Position numbers and translations under genes: made by a program. From assembly GCA_964551495.1 (NCBI GenBank), contig CAZKCA010000002.1, positions 19,648 to 83,647 on the forward strand: a DNA stretch of 64,000 nt, written 5' to 3'. This document shows positions 34,018 to 57,464 of the stretch, in pieces. Numbering within the stretch: the first letter of the stretch is position 1; the number at the start of each line of letters is the position of its first letter. The DNA comes from an uncultured Candidatus Saccharibacteria bacterium (lineage in GTDB: Bacteria > Patescibacteriota > Minisyncoccia > Phycocordibacterales > DATDWN01). Below the pieces are notes generated by a model, which searched no databases, was not told the DNA's origin, and saw nothing but the letters and a program-made list of their open reading frames with translations.

Positions 34018-37000
34018 TTAGAACTCCCTGTATATCAAAGGCTTGAGAGAAAATACAGCTGTGACAGTTTTAGGTGAATTTATTGTCAAAACACAGTTTC
34101 CAGTACCAGAACAATCCCCTTGCCAACCAACAAATCTCCAAGCGGAAGAATCTGGATAAGGAGTTAAGGTAACAACAGTACCAGAAGCATAATTTCTAGA
34201 ACAATTTGATCCACAGTCTATCAATGTATCAACACTTTTAACAGTTCCACCATAAGTTTTGAAAACTTCCAAGTTATGAGTTGTATTAGGAGTAATAGTT
34301 ACAGAGTCACTATCCCCTCCTTCAGTATTTGAACAGGTTAAAGTATAAGTTGTATTGTTTATTATTCCATTTATATCCTCACTACCTCCCAATACAGATT
34401 TTGATCCACTCCAACCACCAGATGCTGTACAACTAGTTGGATTTCCCGTTGTAGACCAAGAAATAGTTGTGGATAGAGGAGCATTACCTGTTGTTGGATT
34501 ACCACTTATTGTTACAGTAGGAACTGTTCCTTGTTTTTGCCAAGTCAATCCATACCCAGCCCCACCTCCATTTTCATACATTTCATAAACAAGAGTTCTC
34601 TGGCCAGCAGATAATACAACAGGAGAACCTGAGGTGCTTCTTATTGCATGGTCAGACCAATCATTTACCAAATATCCACTATCTGGAACACCATCGTTGT
34701 TATCATCAAAATATGCACGAGAACCATCATCTGACGCCGTAGTAAATACATATGTTCCAGCTGTAAAATTGAATCTTCCTTTCCATCTTACAGAATAAGT
34801 ATCTGTCAAAGTTCCTGGACCAGCAGATCCCCAGTCAACATTCGGCAGAGGTGAAGCTGTATTTGGTACAGGAGAAGCTAGGACAGGTCCAGTTATTGGA
34901 TTTATAGCAGCTAAAGTATTAAATGCAGTTCCTGTATAAGCACAACCATACATTTGATTTGTCCCTACTGTGGCAGGGTTACAAGAACCACCTGAGGCAG
35001 CTCCGACAGTAACTGAAGCATACCTTGTTACAGATGCTGGAGAAGCGTCAGCTCTATCACACCTTATACCAAAAGTATAATTTGAGCTTGGAGATACATC
35101 TGTATAACCACCACTTACACTCTTTGATCCGCTCCAACCAAACCCAGTTCCATTATACGCATAACAAGAAGTTGGGTTTCCCGTTGTAGACCATGTCAAT
35201 CTTGAACTATTTCCGGTTGTTATAGAAGAAGGTGTTGCTGTAAATGTTAATCCTATAGTAGGAGAAGATATAACAGGTACGGATACGGAAGTCGCACAAC
35301 CAGCATCTTTTCTTATTTCTATAGTATAAGTTCCTGTTCCAGAAAGAGGATAAACGTTTATTTGATTTGGTCCTCTATAAGTTGTAGGAACATTAAAACC
35401 ACTAGGACTATAAGTTATAGAGGCATTGTCTATTTCTGATTGTGTCCCGAAATTACCATAAATTATAAGGTAGCCGTTCATGTAAACTTCTGGAGTGTAC
35501 ACACCTGTACTAGCATTATAACCGTTATATCCGCTGACACTAAAGTTACAAGCATTAGGATTTACTTTGACAGCAACAGAATCCACAACATCAGCAGTCC
35601 CAGATTTACTACAAATTATATTGTAAGTATAAGTTCCAGCGGTTAAACTAGATCTTAATTCAGAACCACTAGGTACTGATTTGGATCCAGACCAATAACC
35701 AGAAGCTGTACAACTAGATGGACTCCCAGTTGTAGACCAACTAAGTGTTGTTGAGTTTGTAGGTAGGGTCATATTTGTTCTAGAAGCAGAAAGGTCCACA
35801 GTTATAGGAGAAGTTGCCCCAACTGTTACTGTGGCATTTGCAGAAACAGGAGAAAGACCTGCTTTGCTACATGTAATACTGTATGTATATGTCCCTGCGC
35901 TAGGAATAGAAACACCCTGACTTCCGCCGGATGTAGACCTAGACCCAGTCCATGCTCCACTAGCTGTACAACTATCTGGAGCACCTGTTGTTGTCCAAGT
36001 AAGTGTAGAAGAGTTTGAAGGCCATGTCATAGATGTTGGGCTAGCAGACAAAGTCACTCCTATAGAAGCTGGAGCAGATAGATTTACTGTAAGAGTAGCC
36101 AGCGTTCCTCCAGCTGTTGTATCTCCTCTTCTTTGCAAATAAAATACAGTTCCATTGGAAACATTGGACACAGCAACACTTCTACTACCTGAAAGATGCT
36201 GAGCCTCTAGTGTTCCAGAAGTACTTCCCCTTCTTACATCGTGATCACAATTTACATCAGAATATATAGTTGTAGCACCAGTTGCATTTGAAGTAACTAT
36301 TGGATTTGGGTTAGCATAAAAATTTGTAACAGAACAAGTTGGCTGAGTAACAACAACAGTGGCTTCTTTGTAATAATCCGCAACACCAGTCTTTGTACAA
36401 GTTATTCCATATGTATAAGTTCCAACAGTCAGACTAGATCTTACCTCTGAACCACCCGCTGTACTTTTTGCCCCACTCCAAGCTCCACTAGCTGTACAAC
36501 TTTCAGGATTTCCTGTTGTAGACCAAGTAAGTGTTGTAGAGTTTGTGGGTAGTGTCATAGATGTTGGAGTAGCTGAAAAATCTACAGTAATAGGTTCTGG
36601 TGGGACAGGACCAACTCTTGTAGCCATTGTCACTGGTCCAACGTCTCCATCGTTTGCCAAAGACATACCAATAGAAACAATAACTGTTCCAGCAGGGGCT
36701 CTTAGAACTCTTTTTAATGAGCTAATTGATGGATATCCATGTAACCTACAACTCCCTATATAAGGATCCTCCCAGCCTTTATATCCTGCGGTGTTATTAT
36801 TCCCAATATCAACAAGACTTGCATATTCTTGATAATAACAAGGTTTTTCTGGTGAATCATCTATATATGGACTAGCACTACCCATACCTCCAGAAGTAGG
36901 CCTTCCGGATCTTGTTCCCCATGTCCAACCAACAGCATATCTTCCTGTTTGATATGGAGCTCCTGGGTTTGCCGGGTCATTTCCTGGACCATTTGTACAA

Positions 37001-40768: not shown

Positions 40769-40896
40769 AAATGAAATCTCGTTGAGGCACTGTATTTTTG
40801 GAGACTTCGCAAGCGCGACGGCGCGAGACCGAGCAAAATTTCAGCAGAAATTTATGCGTGCTCCAAAAATACAGTGCCGAGAAAGAGATTTCATTT
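40769..40896 (+). repeat. nested-palindromic repeat element, family 1, copy A (3' of dnaK)
   Basis: Outer IR AAATGAAATCTC/GAGATTTCATTT and inner IR TTTTGGAG/CTCCAAAA. Core is ACTTCGCAAGCGCGACGGCGCGAGACCGAGCAAAATTTCAGCAGAAATTTATGCGTG. Near-identical to copy C and to copy B in reverse orientation. Confidence 0.85.
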
Positions 40897-40915: not shown

Positions 40916-42829
40916 TTACTTCTGATCTTCATTCTTTTTTTCTTCAAACTCCGCATCCCTTACATTCCCCTCTTTATTCTCTTCTGCTTTATTCTCAGAA
41001 GAATTCTCTTGAGTTTGCTTGTTTAGGATTTCACCGATTTTTGATATTTCAGATGAAAGTGTTTCTGTGGCTTTCTTTATAGTTTCCAAATCTTCACCTT
41101 CTTTAGCTTTCTTCAAATCCGCTACTTTTGTTTCTATAGAAGTTTTTAGATCTGCTGGTACTTTATCTCCTGCATCTTTCAAAGACTTCTCAGATGTGTA
41201 TATAAGCTGTTCAGCCAAGTTTTTGACCTCTGCCAAGTCTTTCTTCTTTTTATCTTCTGTAGCATGAGCTTCTGCATCTTTTTGCATTTTCTCAATATCT
41301 TCTTTAGACAAACCAGAACGAGCCTCTATCCTGATGGATTGTTCTTTTCCTGTCGCTTTATCTTTTGCTTTAACAGAAAGAATTCCATTTGCATCTACAT
41401 CAAAAGTAACTTCAACTTGTGGCATACCACGAGGAGCTGGCGGAATACCGTCTAGGATAAATCTTCCAAGAGATTTGTTATCACTTGCCATTGCTCTTTC
41501 ACCTTGGACTATATGAATCTCTACAGAAGTTTGATTATCTGCTGCAGTAGAGAACACTTGAGATTTAGAAGCTGGGATTGTTGTATTTCTTTCAATAAGA
41601 TGTGTTGCAACTCCTCCCATTGTTTCTATACCAAGAGAAAGTGGAATAACATCCAAAAGCAAAACATCTTTGACGTCCCCTGACATAATACCCCCTTGAA
41701 TAGCAGCGCCTAGAGCAACAACTTCATCTGGGTTAATAGACTTGTTTGGTTCTTTTCCAAAATATTCTTTAACTCTTTCTACCATTTTTGGCATTCTTGT
41801 TTGTCCTCCAACCAGTATAACTTCATTTATATCACCCACAGAGAAGCCAGAAGCCTCCATAGCTCTCTTTGTGATAGACATAGCCCTATCTATGAATTCT
41901 TCTGTAAGTTCCTCTAATTTAGCCCTTGTAAGCTTTATAAGAAGGTGTTTTGGTCCAGAAGCGTCAGATGTAATGAAAGGAATATTTACCTCTGTCTCAA
42001 CTGCAGAAGAAAGCTCAATCTTTGCCTTCTCAGCTGCTTCATCTAACCTTTGCAAAGCCAAGTTATCAGATCTTAAATCAATTCCATTTTCTTTTTTAAA
42101 TTCATCAGCAAGGTAGTTTATTATTTTCTGATCAATATCTTTTCCTCCCAAGTGACTGTCTCCATCTGTAGATTTTACTTTGATATCTCCACCAACTTCG
42201 TCCACATCAACCTCCAAAACAGAAACATCAAAAGTTCCACCTCCAAAGTCAAAAACGACTATCTTTTCATCTTTTCTGTTTTTATCAAATCCATACGCAA
42301 GAGCCGCTGCAGTAGGTTCGTTTATAATTCTTTTTACATCTAGGCCAGCGATGGCTCCGGCGTCTTTTGTGGCTTGTCTTTGAGAGTCGTTAAAGTATGC
42401 GGGTACTGTAATAATCGCTTCTGTAACTTTTTCACCGATTTTAGCTTCAACATCTGCTTTGATTTTAGAAATAATCATGGCAGAAATTTCTTCCGGAGTA
42501 TATTCCTTATCATTCATTTTTACTTTTACTCCACCATTTGAAGCTTTTATCATTTCGTAAGGCACAATACCTTTATCTTTTTGGACTGGAGCATCTTCAA
42601 ATTGATGTCCGATAAATCTTTTTATTCCAAAAATTGTGTTTTTTGGATTTGTTACTGCTTGCCTTTTAGCCAAAAGGCCTACAAGTCTTTCTCCTGTTTT
42701 TGATACAGCAACAATAGAAGGGGTAGTTCTAGCGCCTTCTGCATTTTCCAATATTTTTGGCTGTCCAACTTCCATAACTGCCACAGCCGAGTTTGTTGTT
42801 CCAAGATCAATTCCAATTATTTTAGACAT
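40916..42829 (-). CDS. dnaK: chaperone DnaK (Hsp70)
   Basis: [22 protein letters not shown] and [11 protein letters not shown] motifs; 637 aa. Confidence 0.95.
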
Positions 42830-42852
42830 AGTTTTTAGATTAAGTTAGGAAT

Positions 42853-42979
42853 CAATAAATCCTTGCCTTGCCATACCTTTTGTGGAGCACGCATAAATTT
42901 CTGCTGAAATTTTGCTCGGTCTCGTGCCGTCGCACTTGCGAAGTCTCCACAAAAGGTACGACTTCGACGTGATTTATTG
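42853..42979 (-). repeat. nested-palindromic repeat element, family 1, copy B (inverted, 24 bp upstream of the dnaK start codon)
   Basis: Its reverse complement matches copy A's core with 2 substitutions. Own outer IR CAATAAATC/GATTTATTG. Confidence 0.85.
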
Positions 42980-43005
42980 ATAACAAATTTTTAAGATCGA
43001 ATAAT

Positions 43006-43142
43006 TTAAGTAGATAAATTAAATAATTCAAAACATTCGCAGGTTTTTGGCTGAAATAAAAGCGAGAAGCGCCAGCCGGAGACACTGTCTGAGCGTAGCG
43101 AGTTTGGCGAGAGGCCAGCTTTGAGTGCTTTATTTCACAAAA
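43006..43142. repeat. nested-palindromic element, family 2, copy a
   Basis: Terminal IR AATTCAAAACATTCGCAGGTTTTTG / CAAAAACCGAGGACGTTTTGAATT. Inner IR TGAAATAAAAGC/GCTTTATTTCA. GC-rich core. Confidence 0.7.
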
Positions 43143-43169
43143 ACCGAGGACGTTTTGAATTGTTTACAT

Positions 43170-43885: not shown

Positions 43886-44527
43886 CTATTTCTTAAACTC
43901 CCCTACTTTTACCTTTGGAGGACGAATTATTTTATCATTTAGTTTGTAACCAAGACTTAAGACTTCCACTACCTTATGGTCGTCTTCTTTTTTATCTACT
44001 TCTACATTTTCTATGGCTTCGTCTCTATTTGGATCAAAAATCTCTCCTATTGGATTTATTTGAGATACTCCATGATTTACTAAAACATTTAAAAGTTGTG
44101 AGTGAATATACTCTACTCCCACACGCCAGTTTTTATCTACTTTTTCCCAAGCTTCTTTATTTTTAAAGGCAGACTCAAAAGAGTCTAATACTGGAATAAG
44201 TTCATTTACAATATCTTCTTTAGCAAATTTTATAAAATTATCTCGTTCTGAAGCGTCTTGTTTTCTAGCATTTATAAAGTCAGCTTTGTCTCTTTGCCAA
44301 TTGTTCAAAAGGTCAGCTTTTTCTTTTTCAAGCTCTTTTATGCGCTTTTTAAGCTTTGCCAGTTTTGCATTTGCATCAACAGAAGTAACTTCTGTGTTTT
44401 CTTCAAACACAACATCATCAGAGTCAATTTCTGTTTCTTCTATCTCATCTTGAGATATCTCTTCTTCTTTTTTTAGATCGTCGTTCATAGAAAGAATACT
44501 ACCAAAAGTTACTAAATTTTCAAACAA
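43886..44527 (-). CDS. grpE: nucleotide exchange factor GrpE
   Basis: Coiled-coil KLKKRIKELEKEKADLLNNWQRDKADFINARKQ followed by the GrpE beta-domain GEIFDPNRDEAI. Start codon uncertain: TTG at 44525-27 or ATG at about 44486-88. Confidence 0.85.
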   Translation of the reverse strand: MFENLVTFGSILSMNDDLKKEEEISQDEIEETEIDSDDVVFEENTEVTSVDANAKLAKLKKRIKELEKEKADLLNNWQRDKADFINARKQDASERDNFIKFAKEDIVNELIPVLDSFESAFKNKEAWEKVDKNWRVGVEYIHSQLLNVLVNHGVSQINPIGEIFDPNRDEAIENVEVDKKEDDHKVVEVLSLGYKLNDKIIRPPKVKVGEFKK

Positions 44528-44650
44528 TTAAATCTTATTGAGGTATGGTATTTTTGGAGACTTCGCAAGCGCGACGGCGCGAGACCGAGCAAAATTTCAG
44601 CAGAAATTTATGCGTGCTCCAAAAATACTATACTGAAAAAGAGATTTAAT
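44528..44650 (+). repeat. nested-palindromic repeat element, family 1, copy C (abuts the grpE 5' end)
   Basis: Core identical to copy A. Outer IR TTAAATCT/AGATTTAA. Confidence 0.85.
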
Positions 44651-44667
44651 GATAAATATAAACCAAA

Positions 44668-53314: not shown

Positions 53315-53369
53315 ATATAGATTATATTTACATAAAATAAGCCTTTTTGGAAGATTATCGTGTACAAAA

Positions 53370-53491
53370 AAACAAACTCGTTGAGTTGATATGATTTTGG
53401 AGACTTCGCAGTCGGGTAGACGAGACCGAGCGATTTTTCAGCAGAAAAATACGCGTGCTCCAAAATTATATCAATGAAAAAGAGTTTGTTT
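53370..53491 (+). repeat. nested-palindromic repeat element, family 1, copy D (between alaS 5' end and the EamA gene)
   Basis: Outer IR AAACAAACTCGTTGAGTTGATATGA / TATATCAATGAAAAAGAGTTTGTTT; inner TTTTGGAG/CTCCAAAA. Conserved core segment ...GAGACCGAGCGATTTTTCAGCAGAAAAATACGCGTG. Confidence 0.8.
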
Positions 53492-53498
53492 AAAAATT

Positions 53499-56029: not shown

Positions 56030-57238
56030 TTAAATTATAGTTTCCATTATTCCTCCTCCGAGACATTTTTCTCCTTGGTAGAATACAGCGGACTGACCTT
56101 TTGCTACTCCATTTTGGGGTTTTTCAAAAGAGATTTTATAACCTAATTCTAACTTTTCTACCTTACAATTTTGTTTTTCTTGTCTGTATCTTATCCTAAC
56201 CTGACAATTTAAAGGAAATTCTGGCTCTACCCCATCTATAAAATGAATATCTTTTATAAAAATCTCTTTTGTATTGAAAACTAAATCTAGCTGATTTTCT
56301 TTGTCTGCTACAGTTATAGTATTTTTTTCTAGGTCTTTTGACACAACAAAAAAACTTGGGTCATTTGGAGTCTTTTTGGTAATAGTAAATCCATGTCTTT
56401 GACCTATGGTATAAAACAGTGCCCCATCGTGAATCCCAACAACCTCTCCTTTGGAATTTAAAACATCTCCTTTTTTAGTTTCAATGAAGTGTTCAAGAAA
56501 ATCTTTCATATCTACTTTTCCAATAAAACAAAGTCCTTGGCTATCTTTTTTTGTGGCCGTAGGAAGACTAAACTTCTCTGCCAGTTTTCTAACTTCTGGT
56601 TTTGTTAAGTGTCCTACAGGGAAAAGTGTTTTTGAAAGCTGTTCTTGGTTTAAAGTGTAAAGAAAATAACTTTGATCTTTATTTTTATCATTTGATTCAT
56701 GAAGTTCAAACCTATAGTTTGATAAATCTTGTTGAGACAAGAGGTTTCTGAAACATTGCGAGCGCGACGGCGCGAACACGAGGAATTTTTCAGCAGAAAA
56801 ATATCCGTTTTCAGAAACCTCTTGAGGAGAAAGAGATTTATCAAATACCAAATTCTGAGCATAGTGTCCTGTGGCTATAAAATCAGCCCCCATCTCTTTG
56901 GCTTTATCTAGAAAAACTCCAAATTTTACATACTTATTACAAAAAACATCTGGATTTGGAGTCCTACCGGCTTTGTATTCAGAAATCATATAGTCAACTA
57001 CTTCTTTTTTATATTCCTTCTCACAATCAATAGTTAAAAATGGGACATCCAAAATGGCACAAACTCTCATAGCACTTCTCCTTTCTTCTTTCCAGTCACA
57101 AGGTAAAAACTCTGGATGCCAAACTTTTAGAAAAACCCCCATGACGTCAAAACCGGCTTCTTTAAGCAAAGCCAAAGAGACAGAAGAGTCCACTCCGCCT
57201 GATAGACCAACAAAAACCTTTGGCTTTCTATTTTCCAT
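56030..57238 (-). CDS. mnmA: tRNA 2-thiouridine(34) synthase MnmA, carrying a 40-aa in-frame insertion
   Basis: PP-loop VGLSGGVDSSV, catalytic-Cys regions, KDQSYFLYTL and the C-terminal GQSAVFYQGEKCLGGGII. Between GHYAQ and KDQSYFL there are about 58 aa where E. coli MnmA has about 20. Confidence 0.9.
   Translation of the reverse strand: MENRKPKVFVGLSGGVDSSVSLALLKEAGFDVMGVFLKVWHPEFLPCDWKEERRSAMRVCAILDVPFLTIDCEKEYKKEVVDYMISEYKAGRTPNPDVFCNKYVKFGVFLDKAKEMGADFIATGHYAQNLVFDKSLSPQEVSENGYFSAEKFLVFAPSRSQCFRNLLSQQDLSNYRFELHESNDKNKDQSYFLYTLNQEQLSKTLFPVGHLTKPEVRKLAEKFSLPTATKKDSQGLCFIGKVDMKDFLEHFIETKKGDVLNSKGEVVGIHDGALFYTIGQRHGFTITKKTPNDPSFFVVSKDLEKNTITVADKENQLDLVFNTKEIFIKDIHFIDGVEPEFPLNCQVRIRYRQEKQNCKVEKLELGYKISFEKPQNGVAKGQSAVFYQGEKCLGGGIMETII
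56722..56843 (+). repeat. nested-palindromic repeat element, family 1, copy E, inserted in frame inside mnmA
   Basis: Outer IR GATAAATC/GATTTATC and inner IR AGGTTTCTGAAA/TTTCAGAAACCT. Core GCGAGCGCGACGGCGCGAACACGAGGAATTTTTCAGCAGAAAAATA. The element is about 120 bp and translates (minus strand) to DKSLSPQEVSENGYFSAEKFLVFAPSRSQCFRNLLSQQDLS within MnmA. Confidence 0.8.
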
Positions 57239-57295
57239 TGCTGTATTTATAACACAAATCCATTACAAAACACATCCTAATCAAAAACATACACG

Positions 57296-57449
57296 AGAAA
57301 ACCATTCGCAGACTTTTGTTTAAGATAACAACAATTTTTTCTAGCCGTGAGCACTAACCCCTATGAAATAAGGGGCGACCGAAGGGAGTTTGCGGTAAGG
57401 CAGAAAAAATTGTGCTTTATCTTACAAAAGACGAGGACGGTTTTGGAGG
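57296..57449. repeat. nested-palindromic element, family 2, copy b (between mnmA 5' end and mltG)
   Basis: Terminal IR AAAACCATTCGCAGACTTTTG / CAAAAGACGAGGACGGTTTT, related to the termini of copy 2a. Inner IR TAAGATAA/TTATCTTA and hairpin CCCCT-ATGAAATA-AGGGG. Confidence 0.6.
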
Positions 57450-57464
57450 TATGTTTTTGATTTT

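Follow-up and report, generated by a model that had tools for sequence, protein, structure and literature searches.

The 64,000-nt stretch of DNA analysed here (the window), taken from a contig of an uncultured Candidatus Saccharibacteria bacterium, carries on its minus strand the gene mnmA, which encodes tRNA 2-thiouridine(34) synthase (positions 56030..57238), and within this gene lies a copy of a palindromic repeat that occurs four more times in the window between genes. The copy adds 41 codons to mnmA without breaking the frame, and we consider it very probable that it is translated there as a tolerated insertion, in the manner of the Rickettsia palindromic elements (RPEs). Rickettsia provides the best-known case of palindromic repeats that colonise housekeeping genes in frame; the family described below, of which we found no published description in the literature, colonises such genes in the same manner in very different bacteria with reduced genomes.

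The host gene is an intact open reading frame (ORF) of 402 aa and, according to the ORF list, the sole long ORF over the insert site. All three tRNA_Me_trans domains, N, M and C, were matched in Pfam (PF03054, 1.8e-72; PF20259, 9e-20; PF20258, 3e-22), solved MnmA structures were matched in the PDB at an E value of about 1e-91, and the Pfam, PDB and Foldseek results showed that the N-terminal PP-loop (HUP) domain, the central PRC-barrel and the C-terminal beta-barrel are all present. This three-domain fold is common to the window protein and the MnmA proteins of E. coli, S. pneumoniae and others (PDB 2der, 2det, 2deu, 2hma and 9hlv). The PP-loop motif SGGVDSS (residues 13-19) and the two cysteine motifs, with Cys100 in NPDVFCNK and Cys237 in QGLCFIG, are invariant in the family alignment, and we take Cys100 and Cys237 to be the equivalents of the catalytic Cys102 and Cys199 of E. 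coli. Outside the insert, the ratio of nonsynonymous to synonymous divergence (omega, Nei-Gojobori method) is 0.075, 0.055 and 0.087 against the related metagenomic loci L002, L001 and L003, respectively, at synonymous divergences (dS) of 0.9 to 1.1. The gene thus appears to be functional and under purifying selection, and it is this selection alone that supports its predicted role in the thiolation of tRNA U34.

The insert occupies positions 56720..56842 (minus strand) and consists of 123 nt, which are free of stop codons, keep the frame of mnmA and encode residues 133-173 of the protein (DKSLSPQEVSENGYFSAEKFLVFAPSRSQCFRNLLSQQDLS). The first-pass annotation, made from the sequence alone, had described an in-frame and stop-free insertion of 120 bp and 40 residues at this place; its statements on frame and stop codons hold, and the size has to be corrected to 123 nt and 41 aa, since the peptide it quoted itself counts 41 residues. 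The segment TGHY...KDQSYF measures 60 aa in the window protein as against 19 aa in 40 of the 120 best homologues, an excess of 41 residues. When the insert is taken out, the spacing between GHY and KDQSYF falls to the 19 residues that form the baseline of insert-free homologues, in agreement with the earlier remark that the spacing without the insert resembles that of E. coli MnmA (about 20 residues). The HMMER alignment with the PDB proteins covers residues 2-128 and 183-399, and between these two blocks the query has 54 residues and the solved proteins have 14, an excess of 40. Compared with the solved MnmAs, the window protein therefore has 40-41 additional residues, located at the tip of a beta-hairpin of the catalytic domain.

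In the AlphaFold2 (AF2) model of the protein (mean predicted local distance difference test score, pLDDT, 83; predicted TM-score, pTM, 0.82), residues 139-165 have a pLDDT below 50 and lie between the strands 128-133 and 175-180, and Foldseek superposed the model on 2hma, 2der and 2deu with target-normalised TM-scores of 0.89-0.91. Because the low-confidence residues lie between two strands and the other parts of the fold are intact, it is probable that the insert forms a disordered surface loop at the beta-hairpin tip in the N-terminal PP-loop domain, which is the kind of location that had been expected for it. The inserted peptide is presumably made by ribosomes, and the insertion may well be neutral or nearly so.

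The covariance model of the repeat was built from the four intergenic copies, A to D, only, which kept the test on the mnmA copy (copy E) independent. The model matched copy E at 56721-56843 with 100.8 bits (E value about 3e-21), which confirms, far beyond chance, that the mnmA insert is a copy of the A-D repeat family, as the first-pass annotation had it. The covariance match and the fold together place the whole hairpin at 56718..56845 on the plus strand in model orientation, antisense to mnmA; its folding energy is -54.5 kcal/mol (z = -6.6), and none of 200 shuffled sequences folded as well. From the outside inwards, all on the plus strand, the outer stem is formed by the left arm TTTGATAAATCT (56718..56729) and the right arm AGATTTATCAAA (56834..56845), both also present in the allele of L001. 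An asymmetric internal loop separates the outer stem from stem 2, whose left arm CAAGAGGTTTCTGAAA (56738..56753) pairs perfectly with the right arm TTTCAGAAACCTCTTG (56809..56824) and shows one compensatory pair relative to L002. This long stem closes a three-way junction containing two core hairpins, P2 (GCGC-GACG-GCGC, 56762..56773), which covaries, being GTGC/GCAC in copy B and GCTC/GAGC in L002, and P3 (GGAATTTTTC-AGCA-GAAAAATATCC, 56782..56806), the best-conserved part of the family. A hammerhead-like three-way junction was considered and rejected, since inspection by eye showed neither strand to contain the conserved core motifs of a hammerhead. A search of the whole window against Rfam 15 gave nothing at the gathering threshold, and the sensitive mode gave chance-level matches only, for example one to a miRNA-precursor model that scored 25 bits where its threshold is 89.

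Copies A (40769..40896, plus strand, 148.7 bits) and B (42851..42981, minus strand, 126.7 bits) flank a minus-strand gene of 637 aa (40916..42829), copy A lying directly downstream of its end at 40916 and copy B directly upstream of its start at 42829. Copy C lies at 44527..44651 (plus strand, 144 bits), and copy D, at 53370..53492 (plus strand, 124.3 bits), lies right against the stop codon that ends the ORF upstream of it. Within the window, the copies have their outer arms only partly in common. The 73-nt cores of copies A (40796-40868) and C (44552-44624) are 100% identical and that of copy B is 95% identical, yet the stem-2 boxes of the three copies differ at several paired positions. The cores of copies D and E, which lie 9-12 kb farther along, reach an identity of only 63-74%. 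The pattern suggests that the core alone underwent local conversion or was recently copied at short range. At the copy D region (53315-53498), the corresponding loci L002 (3662-3754) and L003 (14444-14535) have a short GC-rich hairpin with a T-run behind it, resembling a terminator, immediately past the stop codon that ends the same gene, and the first 12 or so nucleotides past that stop (AAAC.A.CTCTTTT) are common to the window, L002 and L003. Since this other hairpin occupies the site in L002 and L003, the comparison of filled and empty sites at copy D did not define the limits of the element.

The proteins nearest to the window MnmA come from metagenome-assembled genomes of Paceibacterota/Parcubacteria. 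The same insert is present at the same place in L002, an independent Logan assembly whose MnmA is 88% identical to that of the window. The L001 protein, 84% identical over its full length, reads GATAAATCTCTTTCTCCTCAA|CAAGATTTATCA at this site, and comparison of the DNA of the window, L001, L002 and L003 showed that 90 nt (30 codons) are missing from L001, corresponding to 56732..56821 or, equally, 56737-56826 (plus strand). This deletion removes stem 2 and the core, leaves the outer stem and the internal loop in place, and is bounded by 5-nt direct repeats, TTGAG, at 56732-56736 and 56822-56826. The dS values are 0.52 between L002 and L001, 0.94 between the window and L002, and 1.00 between the window and L001; they give the tree (window,(L002,L001)), so that the L001 allele is most simply read as a secondary in-frame loss. 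The best explanation of this pattern is that the insertion predates the split of the window and L002 lineages. Deletion between short direct repeats at the base of a hairpin is a classic signature of replication slippage (palindrome instability), and the L001 deletion may have arisen by slippage across the hairpin. In L003 and L004 (77% identity), the left arm is kept and the remainder is replaced by a near-perfect fold-back copy of that arm, and the more distant MnmA proteins mostly have the 19-aa baseline and no insert. Accordingly, alignment of the orthologues, the check that had been called for, bears out that the segment is not ancestral, for it is missing from most Paceibacteria MnmA proteins, and its central 30 aa are missing from L001. 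L003 also carries, at about 8 kb from mnmA, a bAvd gene (1247-1588), encoding an accessory protein of diversity-generating retroelements.

An extra segment at the insert position, of +5 to +43 aa, is found in about half of the best 120 MnmA homologues, and these segments belong to several unrelated peptide families with many different lengths. The alignments thus indicate that the insert site of MnmA is a recurrent hot spot. Most of the inserts whose DNA was examined are hairpins, as judged from the z-score of the fold against shuffled sequences. The hairpin signal is clear for the remnant insert of L001 (z -5.2) and the inserts of L008 (-4.8), L015 (-4.5) and L004 (-3.4), and weak for those of L006 (-1.6) and L005 (-1.3), the latter having decayed arms and still matching the covariance model; the L013 insert is a tandem repeat without a hairpin (+0.7), and mnmA genes without an insert gave z-scores of about 0. 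In L005, where MnmA is 65% identical, the same site is occupied by another member of the family (46 bits), which is turned the other way round with respect to the gene. By tblastn on raw DNA, 13 of 13 mnmA loci are in frame, 7 of them with inserts of 5 to 40 aa, and the chance of finding all of them in frame if the frame were irrelevant is about 5e-4. That the frame is kept at all of these inserts argues for their being read by ribosomes. Three MnmA homologues (P0111, P0071 and P0083) carry further inserts elsewhere in MnmA, which follow the first helix, lie in the C-terminal barrel or are close to the C-terminus, and the protein P0111, of 472 aa, has four inserts altogether.

Outside mnmA, a 29-nt degenerate core pattern matched at least 120 metagenome contigs, and among the matches listed the covariance model identified 87 copies in 80 loci. 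The assemblies that contain the family include those named Hain-H41/H43 (ERZ12926xx), from groundwater. The sequences point to a structured palindromic repeat family of about 125 nt in Paceibacteria, which belong to the candidate phyla radiation (CPR). Over 76 copies, 95.1% of the alignment cells are standard pairs, as against 62% in column shuffles and 39-53% when the partners are slid by 1-3 columns, and 43 of the 46 pairs change on both sides; these figures lean towards structure, because the copies were aligned by fitting them to the model and the search pattern had already set part of P3. The arms are complementary within each copy and their sequences are unrelated between genomes.

Twelve of the 87 copies are embedded in frames that stay open for 40 codons or more on both sides. 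Three of them are in genes for cysteine desulfurase (class-V aminotransferase, Aminotran_5), at sites within about 5 residues of one another and in both orientations (L058 as against L042 and L070); two are at the same site of TsaD (L080 and L021) and two at the same site of a UvrD-type helicase (L038 and L025); PheT, a RecG-like helicase and a PMT_2 glycosyltransferase contain one in-frame copy each; and two copies (L051 and L083) are in short open frames. A thirteenth copy, near the N-terminus of a metallo-beta-lactamase-fold protein (L093), falls just outside the 40-codon criterion. The RPE-like behaviour that had been proposed from the mnmA copy alone is therefore repeated in other conserved genes. 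Cysteine desulfurase is the sulfur donor of MnmA, and TsaD is another tRNA-modification enzyme; that several hosts are linked to tRNA modification may merely reflect a gene content rich in housekeeping functions.

Three frames of the element are used within genes, giving the typical peptides ...SATARARGIFQQKNIRA... (frame +0), ...ASATGASTRNFSAEKYPC... (frame +2) and ...HGYFSAEKFLVLAPS... (frame -2, as in the window mnmA). Copies not embedded in genes have on average 1.51 stop-free frames out of six, as against 0.70 in shuffled sequences, so the family is unusually compatible with being read. Over the family, the hairpin lengths divide 13/23/25 among the modulo-3 classes. Since all three classes are occupied, the element has no built-in rule of triplet length, and the preservation of the frame looks like the outcome of a selection filter; of the two options left by the first-pass annotation, selection for frame-preserving copies is to be preferred to a length constraint. 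No gene-disrupting copy was found: eight combinations of copy and strand (seven copies) have long open frames on both sides, and none of them, judged by reading the translations without a Pfam search, is a split gene. In four of the eight, the frame upstream ends only a few bases from the element edge, as for a copy that follows a stop codon. Among the four combinations whose flanking ORFs were translated, two separate distinct genes (rpmE|prfA and RNase H|ComEC-like), one is located upstream of a gene for a DnaQ-like exonuclease, and one, in L018, looked non-coding.

Several loci have variants of the element that are 160-200 nt long, with an expansion of 60-80 nt in the P2 arm (L003 9692-9891, L007 9786-9963 and 14923-15102, and L012 4328-4484). 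Two of these, L003 9692-9891 and L007 9786-9963, are situated immediately upstream of mnmA, where the window has a different, unrelated long hairpin with a branched centre (57279-57462), directly upstream of mnmA and between it and a YceG-like gene. This hairpin folds at -64.8 kcal/mol (z -7.9), and its arms (57279-57342 and 57402-57462) are 78% complementary. It weakly matches 43125-43156, and its membership in the family was rejected, as it showed no match to the covariance model and no blastn similarity, the relatives' loci included. Pairs of copies lying side by side in opposite orientations, a few bases apart, occur in L036 (13308-13554), L065 (4806-5041), L069 (1433-1687) and L085 (1328-1545).

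We propose that a copy of the family entered mnmA at the codons for the beta-hairpin tip of the PP-loop domain, and that it would have survived because it was a multiple of three nucleotides long and free of stop codons in that frame. Ribosomes would read through it and produce the 41-residue loop, which MnmA tolerates, and the L001 lineage would later have trimmed it by the in-frame 90-nt deletion between the 5-nt direct repeats at the base of stem 2. The copies presumably spread by transposition or by templated copying of some form. The direct observations under this proposal are the family membership, the frame, the constrained host gene, the presence or absence of the insert in relatives, the location of the loop in the model and the same behaviour elsewhere.

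Several results weigh against a simple mobile element carried as a passenger peptide. No terminal inverted repeats conserved between genomes were found. There is no consistent target-site duplication, for flanking direct repeats are absent from 39 of 61 copies and favour no particular length; the TTGAG repeats at the 90-nt indel lie inside the element. No transposase is encoded between paired copies, the genes there being a glycosyltransferase and RuvB. The core pattern of the family is absent from viral contigs, and a phage origin was rejected on this ground. The search for a second mnmA covered the 64-kb window, one part of the source genome, and found none there. More telling than the family-wide figures on pairing is the comparison of orthologous inserts within mnmA: the synonymous divergence of the insert between the window and L002 is pS 0.147, as against 0.535 in the rest of mnmA (Fisher p = 1.5e-4), and of the 9 differences in the 123 nt of the insert, 4 form two compensatory pairs, a G>A with a C>T in stem 2 and a G>T with a C>A in P2. 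Such a combination of low divergence and compensation is not predicted by a purely neutral passenger peptide. It points instead to a constraint at the nucleic-acid level or to conversion between the arms; selection on the hairpin as a nucleic acid, and arms that correct each other through hairpin-templated repair or conversion, both fit, and the fold-back in L003 is in keeping with arm-to-arm correction.

A broader interpretation, which we hold only tentatively and regard as rather unlikely, is that the family represents a genetic element of a new type, built on a hairpin, confined to Paceibacteria (CPR) and distinct from a conventional miniature inverted-repeat transposable element (MITE), with a conserved core, arms that vary while keeping their pairing, and reuse, in either orientation, of spots that encode loops, as in MnmA and cysteine desulfurase. 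Sites might then be reused because the element homes to small palindromes already present or because it flips where it lies. If this is true, minimal proteomes would regularly gain new surface loops from the element, and a function as RNA or single-stranded DNA would be possible even within genes.

It is less likely still that the hairpin is kept in mnmA for such a role, as a binding site, a translation pause or a signal for mRNA stability or processing, with the peptide as a by-product, a situation that could coexist with tolerated translation. Synonymous sites about 3.6 times less diverged in the insert than in the rest of mnmA, the two compensatory pairs that arose in place and the strong covariation across the family are what this idea would predict, and the excess of G-U pairs over A-C mismatches on the model strand (109 vs 30) hints at selection on one RNA strand, with the count taken from an alignment fitted to the model. 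However, copies lie in both orientations in genes (mnmA of the window vs that of L005; cysteine desulfurase of L058 vs L042 and L070), so it is not always the same RNA strand that is expressed as sense; L001 has lost the core with the constraint on its mnmA unchanged; the element has no Rfam match, and no terminator or promoter was found inside copy E; and the compensation can also be explained by arm-to-arm gene conversion or hairpin-templated repair, as suggested by the right arm of L003.

The element might also be an intervening sequence removed after transcription or translation, like an intron, an rRNA spacer or an intein, in which case MnmA would never contain the loop. The element is indeed highly structured, and CPR bacteria are known for intervening sequences in their rRNA genes. 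We consider this very improbable, because 123 nt is far below the size of a self-splicing intron or an intein, no ribozyme or intron family of Rfam was matched, the copies within genes have both orientations, and all inserts at the site, as well as all in-gene copies, are in frame and free of stop codons, which would be needless if they were removed from the RNA.

The 41 residues might be an ancient loop or mini-domain of MnmA, particular to the lineage and similar to the intergenic repeats by coincidence. This agrees with the extra residues of about half of the 120 nearest homologues, but the explanation is regarded as refuted: those extras are unrelated families of varied lengths and mostly hairpins where the DNA was examined, insert-free relatives are common, the 100.8-bit match was obtained with a model made of intergenic copies only, and omega is 0.33 inside the insert as against 0.075 outside it, so that the nucleotides rather than the peptide are conserved. 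A pseudogene, or an assembly artefact of a metagenome-assembled genome, might be suspected because the source is uncultured and only 64 kb of it are visible, yet there is next to no likelihood of either, given the omega values of 0.055-0.087, the intact PP-loop and cysteine motifs, a window with no second mnmA to take over, an identical protein in a second, ENA-derived record (P0121), the same insert in the independent Logan assembly L002, and stems that are presumably shorter than typical assembly k-mers.

Among known systems, the RPEs are the closest in behaviour. They measure about 150 bp and number 44 in R. conorii, where nearly half are fused in frame to ORFs in a way that protein folds can accommodate (Ogata et al. 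2000, summarised in the 2024 review PMC10969869); the same review calls a similar process in other prokaryotes only conceivable. Like the RPEs, the present family consists of repeated palindromes of roughly 100-150 nt with several copies in a small genome (five in 64 kb here), located both between genes and inside unrelated housekeeping genes, where the copies are in frame, stop-free and at sites tolerated by the fold, the last being a prediction from the model here. The share of in-gene copies is 12 of 87 among the matches listed, as against nearly half of 44 in R. conorii. The present family differs in its host (Paceibacteria/CPR), in its three-way-junction core with a conserved CAGCAG-type loop and in its use of three element frames; the reuse of one site in both orientations (mnmA and cysteine desulfurase) and hypervariable yet complementary arms are two further features that we have not seen reported for RPEs. 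The analogy supports an element that works like an RPE, likened by behaviour and not by sequence, and we do not file it as a member of an RPE family; RPEs form no Rfam family, so the negative Rfam result says nothing about kinship with them. Full-text searches for literature linking CPR, Patescibacteria or Parcubacteria with palindromic elements, RPEs or MITEs yielded nothing relevant beyond a few incidental co-occurrences.

With the bacterial MITEs (Correia/CREE, ERIC/IRU, RUP, Nezha and others), the family shares small size, non-autonomy, many copies per genome and inverted arms folding into a long hairpin, and MITEs too have occasional in-frame copies within genes (PMC10969869). In contrast to MITEs, however, the ends are not conserved between genomes and the central core is conserved instead, target-site duplications are not consistent, and no parent insertion sequence or transposase was found near paired copies. 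The family thus fails two defining features of MITEs, conserved ends and target duplications. Repetitive extragenic palindromic (REP) sequences and bacterial interspersed mosaic elements (BIMEs) are likewise imperfect palindromes in transcribed intergenic spacers, often right past stop codons, with adjacent copies in alternating orientation (here in L036, L065, L069 and L085); unlike a REP, the present element is three to four times longer, has a branched core and occurs inside genes. No gene for a RAYT-like protein (REP-associated tyrosine transposase) was seen beside the copies, where no systematic search for one was made.

Besides Rickettsia, the family gives a second and widely sampled opportunity to study how selfish hairpins enter proteins without killing them, and it adds three features, namely the recurrent hot spot in MnmA, the two orientations at one site and the compensatory evolution of a hairpin in place. 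It also raises the question of whether hairpins drive many of the lineage-specific insertions in CPR proteins. For annotation, such inserts matter in that they inflate protein length and split domain hits.

No tRNA genes are present in the window. Its region 34377-36594 contains diverged direct repeats of 97-219 nt with 60-74% identity and spacings of 258, 528 and 1281 nt, which look like repeated domains inside one large gene.

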